Shown here one piece after another: positions 1,021-59,183 of a stretch of 64,000 bases of DNA; position 1 is the first letter of the stretch, and every line of letters begins with the position of its first letter. The DNA is taken from positions 1 through 64,000 of the forward strand of contig JAGWFT010000002.1 in the NCBI GenBank assembly GCA_028867755.1, read 5' to 3'. The position numbers and the translations under genes were made by a program. The notes under the pieces are model-generated. The model was not told where the DNA came from. It was given only the letters and a program-made list of their open reading frames with translations, and searched no databases. Source of the DNA: Nitrososphaerota archaeon (lineage in GTDB: Archaea; Thermoproteota; Nitrososphaeria; Nitrososphaerales; Nitrosopumilaceae).

Positions 1021-3075
1021 TTGAAATCAGTTTTAGCACTTGTTTTGATCTTTTCTGCTGTTGTAATGTCTGCTGGAACAATTTCTGGTTTATCGTATAA
1101 TCAAAATGCTTTTGCAATTTCCTCACCGCCAGATGTTACAGTTACATCTCCTTCCAACGGTGCCGCATTATCTTCAAGTACTGTAACAATAACAGGTACC
1201 GCATCTTCCTCATCAAATACAATATCAACAGTCCAAGTATCAATTGATGGTGCACCATATGTTGATGCTACAGGAACAACAAGTTGGTCTTATACTGCAA
1301 ATGGACTTGCAAATGGAGTCCATTCTATTACTGCCAAGGCAATAGATAGCCAAGGACTGATTGGGTATAGCACAAATGTGCTCACAGGCACCACAATACC
1401 TACAGGTAATGGACAGGAACTAGTCTTTGATCCTGCAAATGGGAATATCTATGTTGCAAATATTGCTCAAGGTACAATCTCTGTAATTAGCAGCACTACA
1501 AACCACGTAACAAACACGATATCTGGAGTCCCTGGACCCACAGGTATTGCTTATGACTCTGTAAACGGTTACCTTTACACAGCAAATTATAATTTTAATA
1601 GTATTTCTGTGGTAGATACAACAACCAATCACGTTGTGACCACGATTAGTGCAGGTGGTATTCAGCCATTTGGTGTGGCATATGTTCCAAACGGCAAGAT
1701 CTATGTTGCCAATACAGGGAGTAACACAGTCTCTGTAATCGATCCTTCTTCAAACACTATTGTTGGAACCATTCCTACTGGTGCTCATCCACAAGATTTC
1801 ACATACGACTCTGTACACAATCATCTTTACATGACAAACCAAGGATCTAATACAGTCTCTGTAATTGATCCTTCAACAAATACTATTGTTAACACTATAG
1901 GTGTGGGTGGCTCACCAAGAGGTCTAGTATATGATCCTGCAAATGGCGAAATCTATGTTGCAAATAATGCAGCTAACACTGTCTCTATAATAGATACATC
2001 AAACAACAGCGTCACTAATATCCCAACTGGTTCAAGCGGTGGTCCAAATGGTGTAGCATTTGATCCATCTAACGGATTTGTTTATGTACCAGACTTTTCA
2101 GGTACAAGACTAAATGTGATAGATTCTGCAACCAACGCTTTCATCAATCCGGTCATACTCCCAAGTGCTCCTTACTATTACTATGCAATATTTGATCCAA
2201 TAAACTCTGATATCTACATAACCAGTGGTACTAACGTTGCCGTAATTCAGACTCAGACACAATTTACAGTTACAGTGCAGGATACAACACCACCTGTTGT
2301 AACAGTCCCAGCGCCAATTACCACACCAGCTACTGGTCCATCCGGTGCTACAGTGACATTTGCCACATCTGCAACAGACCCAGATGACACTGCAGGTCCT
2401 GTCCAATGCAATCCTGCCTCTGGTTCAACATTCCCAGTAGGTACAACAACAGTAACATGTACTTCTACAGATACTCACAGTAACACTGGTACTGCATCAT
2501 TTACAGTTACAATATTGTCATTCCTTCAAGAAAAACAAGGTGTAATCCCAAGCCTCCAAGCCATTACACCTGTAAGCCATGATGACCAACAAGACCTCAA
2601 GCAGGCAATAGAAGCAGTACAAGACAGTGTTAACACAAGCCTCTGGCAATCCGATGGTACTCATCTTGTAGTAAAGACAGGTGACAAGGTATTTGATGAT
2701 GAAAAGAAAGCAGTACAACAACTAAATAATATGATTGAGGATAAGAAAGAGTCCTCGTCAATTGTAACAACATTACAAAATGGCATATCAACATTAACTG
2801 ATGTTGACCAAAAGCTTGCTAATACTGCGATCTCAGATGCCAATACTGCTGCCAGTGGATTGACTGGAGATCATGCAAAAGATGCACAAAATGATATTTC
2901 ACAAGCACAAAAAGAGATGAACCAGGCATCAGACGAAAGTAACAAGGGACATTATGATGCTGCAATAGACCACTACAAGAACGCATGGCATCATGCTGAG
3001 GATGTAATCACAGATATCACTCATAACCCTAGTGATCACCAAGGCAATGATGATAATCGCGGAAACGACAAGTAA
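1021..3075 (+). CDS. Secreted/surface protein: Ig-like domain + 7 YVTN-type beta-propeller blades + HYR domain + helical C-terminal domain
   Basis: The ORF track starts at 868, but TTG at 1021 gives a clean signal peptide (MKSVLALVLIFSAVVMSAG...NAFA). Seven ~42-aa repeats (e.g. IYVANTGSNTVSVID), followed by a HYR-type DTTPPVVTVP...FPVGTTTVTCTSTD. Confidence 0.8.
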   Translation: MKSVLALVLIFSAVVMSAGTISGLSYNQNAFAISSPPDVTVTSPSNGAALSSSTVTITGTASSSSNTISTVQVSIDGAPYVDATGTTSWSYTANGLANGVHSITAKAIDSQGLIGYSTNVLTGTTIPTGNGQELVFDPANGNIYVANIAQGTISVISSTTNHVTNTISGVPGPTGIAYDSVNGYLYTANYNFNSISVVDTTTNHVVTTISAGGIQPFGVAYVPNGKIYVANTGSNTVSVIDPSSNTIVGTIPTGAHPQDFTYDSVHNHLYMTNQGSNTVSVIDPSTNTIVNTIGVGGSPRGLVYDPANGEIYVANNAANTVSIIDTSNNSVTNIPTGSSGGPNGVAFDPSNGFVYVPDFSGTRLNVIDSATNAFINPVILPSAPYYYYAIFDPINSDIYITSGTNVAVIQTQTQFTVTVQDTTPPVVTVPAPITTPATGPSGATVTFATSATDPDDTAGPVQCNPASGSTFPVGTTTVTCTSTDTHSNTGTASFTVTILSFLQEKQGVIPSLQAITPVSHDDQQDLKQAIEAVQDSVNTSLWQSDGTHLVVKTGDKVFDDEKKAVQQLNNMIEDKKESSSIVTTLQNGISTLTDVDQKLANTAISDANTAASGLTGDHAKDAQNDISQAQKEMNQASDESNKGHYDAAIDHYKNAWHHAEDVITDITHNPSDHQGNDDNRGNDK

Positions 3076-10458: not shown

Positions 10459-10845
10459 ATGACTAAGGCTTATTACGTAAAGTTTCAAGTCCCCGCTGAC
10501 CTAGTTAGCCCTATCTACGAAGCAGTGAGGGTTGCTCATCAGAGTGGTAAAGTAAAGAAAGGTACAAACGAAGTCACAAAGGCAATAGAGAGAGGAATAA
10601 GTAAACTCGTAGTTATAGCTGAGGATGTCGAACCACCAGAGGTAGTAGCACATCTGCCAATACTCTGTGAGGAACATAATCTACCGTATAGCTTTGTGCC
10701 AAGCAGACAAGAATTGGGCAAGGCATTAGGAATTGATGTCACCTCTGCAGCAGCTGCGATAATAGATTCAGGAGATGCTCAACACATAGTTGACCAAATT
10801 GTGGCATCGCTAGCGCAGATAAAGGGTGGTCAAGCTAGCAAATGA
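10459..10845 (+). CDS. rpl7ae: 50S ribosomal protein L7Ae
   Basis: [14 protein letters not shown]...[14 protein letters not shown]. This is also the K-turn/box C/D binding protein. Confidence 0.97.
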
Positions 10846-58218: not shown

Positions 58219-58260
58219 CTCTATACCATTTTATACTGCATACCAAATTGTTCTGTCGTT

Positions 58261-58334
58261 GGGCCCATAACTCAGCTTGGTAGAGTAACCGGCTCATAAC
58301 CGGTGAGCCAAGGGATCGAAGCCCTTTGGGCCCA
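58261..58334 (+). tRNA. tRNA with CAT anticodon, most likely tRNA-Ile2 (elongator Met not excluded)
   Basis: GGGCCCA acceptor stem, ACCGG-CT CAT AA-CCGGT; lacks the initiator A1-U72 pair and the three G-C anticodon-stem pairs. Confidence 0.85.
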
Positions 58335-58460
58335 TCTATCTTAAATTTTGATTAGTCTAATAATTTCTATAATTATTATTTGGATCGTAAATGAAATTTT
58401 ATCTTGTAATGTTCCGCATGTCATAAAACCAATTTTAAAATAATCAGTTAACTATCTTGA

Positions 58461-58530
58461 TTTGGCTGCAATGAAGAATCAGAGTTATGGCTGAAATTAT
58501 GATGTAAAGGCATTTGTCTGAGCTGCCAAA
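58461..58530 (+). ncRNA. Box C/D methylation-guide sRNA (dual guide)
   Basis: C box ATGAAGA 58471-77; 13-nt guide; D' CTGA 58491-94; C' ATGATGT 58499-505; 12-nt guide; D CTGA 58518-21; terminal stem TTTGGCTGC (58461-69) / GCTGCCAAA (58522-30) with 8 of 9 pairs; TTTTAAAA TATA-like box at 58433-40. Confidence 0.85.
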
Positions 58531-58591
58531 AATCTAAAAAAGATTTGATAAATTTGACACAAAGAACATCATCATGAAACGGTACAGAGTA

Positions 58592-58619: not shown

Positions 58620-59183
58620 ATGCCTCAAACAAAACCAATCGTAAGTATTGAAAATGTTGTGGCATCAGCTTCAGTTGATCAACGCATTGATCTTAATGTT
58701 ATCACGCAAACTTTTCCTGATGTAGAATATCATCCTGATCAATTTCCAGGTTTAGTCTTTAGACTAAAATCGCCAAAGACTGCAACACTGATCTTCAGCT
58801 CAGGCAAAATGGTTTGCACCGGAGCAAAATCTGAAGAGCAAGCAATCAAAGCAGTGAGAAGTGTAGTACAAAAATTAAGAAAAGGTGGAATTAAGATCAA
58901 AAAAGATGCAGTTATAGTAATACAAAACATAGTAGCTTCTGCTAGTCTTGGAGGAAAAATACATCTAGAACAGGCTGCAAGAAGCTTGCCTAGAAGTATG
59001 TACGAACCAGAACAATTTCCAGGTTTGATACATCGAATGCTTGACCCAAAGACTGTTATCTTGTTATTTGCATCGGGAAAACTCGTTTGTACGGGGGCAA
59101 AGAAAGAATCTGAGGTATATCGTGCAGTACATAATCTACATACATTACTTGAGGAAAAAGAACTAATGATATACGAGAGCTAA
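58620..59183 (+). CDS. tbp: TATA-box binding protein
   Basis: Two repeats: IENVVAS / IQNIVAS, YHPDQFPGL / YEPEQFPGL, IFSSGKMVCTGAK / LFASGKLVCTGAK. Confidence 0.97.
   Translation: MPQTKPIVSIENVVASASVDQRIDLNVITQTFPDVEYHPDQFPGLVFRLKSPKTATLIFSSGKMVCTGAKSEEQAIKAVRSVVQKLRKGGIKIKKDAVIVIQNIVASASLGGKIHLEQAARSLPRSMYEPEQFPGLIHRMLDPKTVILLFASGKLVCTGAKKESEVYRAVHNLHTLLEEKELMIYES

Follow-up and report, generated by a model that had tools for sequence, protein, structure and literature searches.

A conserved dual-guide box C/D sRNA with predicted target sites in helices 69-71 of the large-subunit rRNA of Nitrosotalea and other Nitrososphaerales

The window investigated here comprises 64,000 nucleotides of a Nitrososphaerota archaeon (assembly GCA_028867755.1, contig JAGWFT010000002.1, positions 1 to 64,000 of the forward strand). 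Judged from its sequence, the locus at 58464-58527 (+) is a genuine, well-formed and deeply conserved box C/D sRNA. The analysis supported a dual guide aimed at helices 69-71 of the large-subunit (LSU) rRNA, with 2'-O-methylation predicted at A1912 and A1938 in E. coli numbering. As a whole, the locus is very probably best explained by a box C/D sRNA with a length of about 64-70 nt that would be transcribed from its own TATA-type promoter and would guide methylation at helix 69 and at A1938.

An earlier sequence-only reading had described a C-D'-C'-D layout with 13- and 12-nt guides, a terminal stem and a TATA-like box in the gap between tRNA(CAT) and tbp, and all of these elements could be read directly in the sequence. 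The stretch 58464-58527 (+) showed the complete layout of an archaeal dual-guide box C/D sRNA, with terminal stem, box C, 13-nt guide, box D', 4-nt loop, box C', 12-nt guide, box D and stem in 5' to 3' order, all on the plus strand. The 5' half of the terminal stem, GGCUGC (58464-58469), is separated by a 1-nt linker from box C, AUGAAGA (58471-58477), which departs once, at position 5, from RUGAUGA. The 13-nt D' guide AUCAGAGUUAUGG (58478-58490) contains the core UCAGAGUUA, which pairs with the helix 69 loop of the 23S rRNA. Box D', CUGA (58491-58494), and box C', AUGAUGU (58499-58505), both assigned by sequence reading, are joined by the k-loop linker AAUU (58495-58498). The 12-nt D guide AAAGGCAUUUGU (58506-58517), which pairs with the 23S strand entering helix 71, is followed by box D, CUGA (58518-58521), likewise assigned by reading, and by the 3' half of the stem, GCUGCC (58522-58527). 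Five of the six stem pairs between 58464-58469 and 58522-58527 are formed, with a U-U mismatch at the centre, and in the species of the window only, the stem is lengthened by three A-U pairs between UUU (58461-58463) and AAA (58528-58530).

All sequence-level criteria of the archaeal box C/D class were found at this locus. Box C near the 5' end and box D near the 3' end allow a kink-turn with tandem sheared G-A pairs, and the GA dinucleotides of this turn were unchanged in all homologues. The C' and D' boxes with their short loop, spacers of about 12 nt and the short terminal stem also agree with the class. The genes for all three core proteins were detected in the same genome, as expected for this class. 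The gene for L7Ae, the kink-turn-binding core protein, lies within the window at 10513-10785 (+) (Pfam Ribosomal_L7Ae, 104.7 bits), and the genes for fibrillarin (169996-170649; Pfam, 292.1 bits) and Nop5 (170852-171490; Pfam, 233.3 bits) lie outside the window on the same contig (C35).

A strict C-D'-C'-D regular expression matched twice in the 1.64-Mb genome and once in the reversed-sequence control, and among the strict-pattern matches in the genome rRNA-complementary guides were found at the sRNA locus only. A looser half-motif scan of the whole genome for further C/D sRNAs gave 48 matches against 27 in the reversed control and was too noisy. The minimum free energy fold of the single sRNA sequence was unremarkable (z = -1.0), which is expected because the structure depends on non-canonical kink-turns. 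Comparison of the sRNA stretch with Rfam yielded 25 weak matches, 24 of them to C/D-box families. No Rfam family attained its gathering score on this stretch, and the sRNA thus lies outside every curated Rfam C/D family tested, among them sR14, SNORD15 and snoZ266.

The sRNA locus is flanked by tRNA(CAT) at 58260-58336 (+) and by the tbp open reading frame (ORF) at 58620-59183. A putative promoter element, the TATA-like TTTTAAAATAA, is located at 58433-58443 (+), about 31 nt 5' of the first stem base. Across the genus and in most other genera of the family this box was found at a fixed distance from the stem, even inside the short gap between tRNA and sRNA, which argues for an independent promoter; the sRNA would then have its own transcription start, near 58461-58464. 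Contigs assembled from RNA libraries of relatives in two metatranscriptome studies span the tRNA and the sRNA with word depths of 86 and 56, values to which DNA carry-over might have contributed. These contigs give a weak hint of expression, since they carry no information on ends, strand or size. The contig of one run ended at 58532 and continued as a run of A. This position was set aside as a 3' end of the sRNA, as it may be a tailing artefact.

Downstream of the sRNA, in the gap before the tbp promoter, a 19-nt motif (58542-58560, +) was near-invariant in the genus, with variable flanks. It may be a regulatory element of tbp or a signal for 3' processing or termination of the sRNA. The tRNA upstream was the only CAT-anticodon tRNA detected by ARAGORN in the assembly. 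With its GGGCCC acceptor stem, we take it to be closer to the archaeal tRNA-Ile2 (CAU, agmatidine-modified) than to an initiator or elongator tRNA-Met.

The rRNA genes of the window's own genome were represented in fragments. The Rfam LSU and SSU models had no match in the assembly, and BLAST recovered only positions 2482-2996 of the 23S gene and two 16S fragments. The rRNA operon is split over contigs C15, C60 and the end of C35 (271859-272017), with roughly the last 515 nt of the 23S gene present and with one 16S fragment at the extreme end of the contig that carries the window. As the helix 69-71 stretch of this genome is absent from the assembly, pairing of the guides was investigated on the 23S genes of relatives; 15 genomes in which 23S was matched and three more regions supplied these. 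A 60-nt stretch containing both target sites was identical in every one of the 11 23S genes read, which span the order and include four from the same genus.

The D guide formed 10 Watson-Crick pairs with CAAAUGCCUU in all 11 of these genes, using guide positions 2-11. This target lies directly 3' of GGUAGC and before helix 71, just where the earlier reading had placed it. The D' guide formed 10 base pairs (nine Watson-Crick and one G-U) with GUAACUCUGA in the helix 69 loop, using positions 3-12 counted from D'. The duplex begins with the G-U pair at position 3, and the three nucleotides next to D' have no Watson-Crick pairing to this target. In the sequence-only reading, the D' guide had been matched to the sequence CCAUAACUCUGAU; the pairing with the loop was correct, but the assumed sequence was wrong at both ends and reads GAGUAACUCUGAC in relatives, so that 10 positions pair and not 13. 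Its proposal of a dual guide for helices 69-71 was otherwise upheld by 10-bp complements 26 nt apart in 23S genes of the same genus, and the complementarity of at least 9-10 nt on which it had made itself depend was found as 10 bp for each guide, on the 23S of relatives in place of the cognate gene.

Alignment to the annotated E. coli 23S gene assigned the fifth nucleotide of the D' guide, U58486, to A1912 and that of the D guide, U58513, to A1938. The numbering given earlier for the predicted sites, which are 26 nt apart, was confirmed in this way, with some uncertainty between A1912 and A1913. Within the prediction, the D-guide site A1938 is secure, the guide having a canonical 12-nt spacer and being paired at positions 2-11. 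For the D' guide, both the site and the efficiency of methylation are less certain, because its spacer has 13 nt instead of the canonical 12 and pairing sets in at position 3, with G-U. With shuffled guides, a 10-bp run over the fifth position was obtained in 95 and 88 of 3000 trials, respectively (about 3% each). Both guides had such a run in 4 of 3000 trials, and in none of the 3000 were both runs within 100 nt. No run of at least 8 bp was found for either guide in the 16S rRNA of one relative of the same genus. A pair of guide-complementary words 69 nt apart on contig C24 was rejected as a chance occurrence, as the words are in the wrong order and the stretch is otherwise unrelated; its longest open frame has 181 codons on the minus strand.

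In the 23S genes of some relatives, an intron of about 690 nt was observed between AAGGUA and GCCAAAUG (E. coli 1932/1933), exactly between both target sites. Examples are L041 (23S gene of genome G012, same genus), with the intron at about 960-1650 and an ORF at 1054-1545 (-), L039 (from the unpublished genome G010) and L004 (G021). The intron product is a LAGLIDADG endonuclease of 163 amino acids (Pfam, 84.6 bits). In one genome of another family, an insertion of about 750 nt was present a few nucleotides upstream, directly after helix 69. A putative 23S intron is mentioned in the genome paper of N. devanaterra.

The TBP encoded in the window was 95-98% identical to Nitrosotalea records, and both Ca. 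Nitrosotalea sp. TS and Nitrosotalea metagenome-assembled genomes (MAGs) have the sRNA upstream of tbp. Going by these named records, the window belongs to the genus Nitrosotalea. Within this genus, a DNA match to the sRNA was obtained in all 34 genomes scored under a loose limit, and 28 loci were aligned in full. The unpublished genomes G010, G011, G029, G038 and G044 count in the genus tally, and loci L018, L012, L014 and L016 of the genus alignment derive from the unpublished G010, G029, G038 and G044, respectively. G010 was the sole support for a genome with a GG-type guide and the same helix 69 sequence, and for the intron in its own 23S gene; the covariance model and all other conclusions were based on published genomes only. 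The covariance model detected exactly one copy in 143 of the 151 genomes of the order (116 of the 118 high-quality genomes; 55 of 59 genera). Matches were obtained, among others, in Ca. Nitrosotenuis chungbukensis MY2, a Cenarchaeum MAG, a Ca. Nitrosopelagicus genome and a Ca. Nitrosomirales MAG. Outside the order, 68 of 130 sampled genomes of other Thermoproteota families were matched, with the same guides and with covarying stems. In a few distant matches (rows L100, L101 and L103) the D' guide is replaced and its target lies a few nucleotides further 5' in helix 69.

Conservation differed between the segments of the sRNA. The columns of box C were invariant except for position 5, which is A, G, U or C in relatives and faces position 2 of box D in the kink-turn. 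The core of the D' guide was invariant across the order, and positions 1-2 beside D' were free to vary (GG, AA, AU, GU, AC). Box D' was invariant in the family and NUGA or CNGA in more distant lineages; box D was CUGA in the family, and some other families have CNGA. The UGA core of box C' was invariant, the remainder being partly degenerate in relatives. The loop between D' and C' varied more than any other segment, in its sequence as well as in its length (3-5 nt in the genus and more elsewhere), as expected of an unconstrained k-loop linker. The central position of the stem was a constant mismatch within the genus, although its sequence varied. In other families the guide cores were unchanged and the stem was altered by compensatory substitutions. 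Such changes affected three of the six pairs across families, with a covariation score that none of 500 shuffles attained, and stem cells were paired in 87.7% of cases, compared with 19-57% when the partner column was slid. In these alignments, the conservation pattern is that of a guide RNA, with fixed boxes and guide cores, a variable loop and variable nucleotides next to D', and a covarying stem. The conservation of boxes and guides in relatives, which had been set beforehand as a test of the sequence-only reading, was confirmed by the alignments and by the covariance search. Within the genus, the sRNA was always found between tRNA(CAT) and tbp, in unchanged order. Many other genera of the family retained the tRNA alone as a neighbour, with a gap of about 35-40 nt, and other families retained neither.

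In the established model of the archaeal C/D RNP, methylation by fibrillarin falls on the nucleotide that pairs with position 5 of the guide (PMC7229835). In the proposed mechanism, 58464-58527 (+) would be transcribed from its own TATA-type promoter to give an RNA some 64-70 nt long. With the terminal stem closing them, boxes C and D would fold into a kink-turn and boxes C' and D' into a k-loop; L7Ae would bind to each motif, a Nop5 dimer would bridge both, and two copies of fibrillarin would be placed over the guides. The D' guide would pair with the loop of helix 69, which forms intersubunit bridge B2a, leading to 2'-O-methylation of A1912, or alternatively of A1913 if the extra spacer nucleotide is skipped in the count. 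The D guide would pair with the strand leading into helix 71, resulting in methylation of A1938. Because the targets are 26 nt apart, it is plausible that the sRNA also holds the helix 69-71 region together during folding of the pre-rRNA.

The choice between A1912 and A1913 concerns the length of the D' spacer. The D spacer has 12 nt, whereas the D' spacer has 13 nt, one above the norm, and this length was constant across the family. By the fifth-nucleotide rule, A1912 is predicted in 42 homologues with a 13-nt D' spacer, whereas in the 20 parsed homologues with a 12-nt D' spacer, some of them from outside the family, the core lies one nucleotide closer to D' and A1913 is predicted. In both spacer forms the guide core keeps its distance from box C, and the extra nucleotide adjoins D'. 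We consider A1912 somewhat the better supported as the D' site. That the same RNA methylates A1913, which we take to be the equivalent of yeast Am2256 (own numbering), is possible but rather unlikely; the extra nucleotide of the family would then be looped out or ignored and the ancestral site retained. Such a retention would agree with the prediction of A1913 in the homologues with the shorter spacer, including lineages outside the family, with the 12-nt spacers of Sac-sR113 and IHOsR91, with the same position of the core relative to box C in both forms and with the three nucleotides beside D' that form no Watson-Crick pairs to the target. It is, however, at odds with the established rule, which counts from box D or D', and archaeal RNPs are still active with longer spacers (PMC7229835). 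With A1912 as the preferred site, we tentatively propose, at a little less than even confidence, that in the Nitrosopumilaceae a fixed 1-nt insertion beside D' moved the helix 69 methylation from A1913 to A1912 while the guide sequence was unchanged. If this is true, the spacer shift would constitute a natural, lineage-wide test of the ruler that counts from D', and retargeting would have been brought about by a change of spacer length instead of a change of guide. The contrast between 12- and 13-nt spacers poses a clean, testable question on site choice by the RNP.

Three further explanations of the locus were considered. The RNA might act chiefly as a folding chaperone that clamps the strands of helices 69 and 71 in the pre-23S rRNA, with methylation being secondary, or absent at one or both sites; in intron-bearing genomes it would clamp the two exons. 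The distance of 26 nt between the targets would suit such a function, bridging or chaperone roles have been proposed for dual guides in reviews (PMC7994747), and in genomes of the same genus the LAGLIDADG-encoding intron of about 690 nt is inserted exactly between the target sites. Nevertheless, this explanation is improbable, given that an adenosine faces the fifth position in both guides, that both duplexes are of canonical length, that a complete methyltransferase machinery is encoded and that the same sites are predicted or known to be methylated in other archaea and in eukaryotes. The sRNA was, moreover, conserved equally in genomes without the intron.

The sequence-only reading had also suggested A9 of the neighbouring tRNA(CAT) as a second physiological target of the D' guide. 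A Watson-Crick match of 9 bp does exist between guide positions 1-9 and tRNA positions 5-13, and tRNA(CAT) was the only tRNA in the genome with a run of at least 8 bp. This match, however, requires the GG next to D'. Relatives with AA, AU, GU or AC at this site have the same acceptor stem, and their match is reduced to 7 bp. In addition, guide position 1 is normally not used for pairing, the matched tRNA residues are near-universal among tRNAs, and the sRNA is unlinked from tRNA(CAT) in other families. A second target at A9 is therefore very unlikely and found no support in conservation; as a conserved target, tRNA(CAT) was ruled out by the variable dinucleotide beside D' and by the loss of linkage outside the family. 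Finally, the motif might have arisen by chance, or might act in cis within the tbp leader or the tRNA trailer without being an independent RNA gene; the linkage of tRNA(CAT), element and tbp, which is kept throughout the genus, would fit this. We give this explanation hardly any credence, since 143 of the 151 genomes of the order carry one copy of the element, which in most other families has no adjacent tbp or tRNA, and since it has its own conserved TATA-like box, a covarying stem and guide-target statistics far above chance.

The sRNA is an unexceptional representative of an RNA class that is well known, and the same guides and the same hotspot have already been published for Crenarchaeota. 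Nothing in these results would surprise a specialist. With the covariance model, one gene per genome, which no Rfam family captures, would be annotated in almost all genomes of the order. The dual guide for helices 69 and 71 was found as a single copy across the mesophilic Nitrososphaerales and in much of the Thermoproteota, in contrast to the rapid turnover of guides in archaea that reviews emphasise. That one dual guide has been kept so widely in a single copy suggests that the modifications of these two riboses belong to a core set. The D-guide site also coincides with a conserved eukaryotic Am site. Its equivalent in yeast is presumably A2281 of the 25S rRNA (own numbering), and snR13 is, we assume, the yeast counterpart of SNORD15.

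Helices 68-71 are a documented hotspot of archaeal methylation, with predictions dense around A1912. The searchable literature yielded no account of box C/D sRNAs in ammonia-oxidising archaea, nor were methylation data for the lineage of the window found in searchable papers; the genome paper of Nitrosotalea devanaterra mentions seven unnamed small RNA genes. The best-scoring Rfam family was Pyrococcus sR14 (RF01145), with 30.8 bits against a gathering threshold of 38. sR14 shares the general archaeal C/D layout, the box sequences and the spacing, but its guide sequences differ, and membership was rejected on account of the score below threshold and the different guides. In vertebrates, the consensus of SNORD15 (U15, RF00067) before box D equals the D guide of the window over 10 nt plus CUGA. 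For the D guide of SNORD15A, the assigned target is human LSU-3764, which precedes G3771, at the base of helix 71, by 7 nt (PMC5027482); human LSU-3764 (28S A3764) corresponds to E. coli A1938. The earlier suggestion that A1938 matches a conserved eukaryotic Am site was borne out by this agreement of the D guide and D box with the SNORD15 consensus. SNORD15 differs in that it is a eukaryotic snoRNA, is about 146 nt in length, and has long spacers and a D' guide directed to G3771 instead of helix 69, and the sRNA of the window scored 17.2 bits with this family against a threshold of 75. As the target is conserved, the shared guide is no proof of common descent.

The closest counterparts were found in the Crenarchaeota. 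The D guide of Sac-sR125 of S. acidocaldarius is identical to that of the window over all 12 nt (Dennis et al. 2015, PMC4644070), and the D guide of Sac-sR113 from the same organism carries the same helix 69 core with one further matching base (PMC4644070, supplementary file 1). Both sRNAs were detected by RNA-seq and agree with the sRNA of the window in RNP class and in the targeted rRNA region. In Sulfolobus, however, each of the two guides has its own sRNA and is combined there with a different second guide, whereas in the window both are on one RNA. The helix 69 guide is placed upstream of box D in Sulfolobus but upstream of D' in the window, and its spacer of 12 nt predicts A1913 in Sulfolobus, compared with 13 nt and a predicted A1912 in the window. 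In Ignicoccus hospitalis, two further sRNAs detected by RNA-seq share the guides: the helix 69 core precedes box D in IHOsR91, with a 12-nt spacer, and the helix 71 guide likewise precedes box D in IHOsR109 (PMC4644070). IHOsR109 differs in its D' guide, whose helix 69 target lies a few nucleotides further 5', like that of the minority of distant matches of the covariance model. The occurrence of these guides on different sRNAs in Sulfolobus and Ignicoccus fits the reshuffling of guides that has been described in a review.
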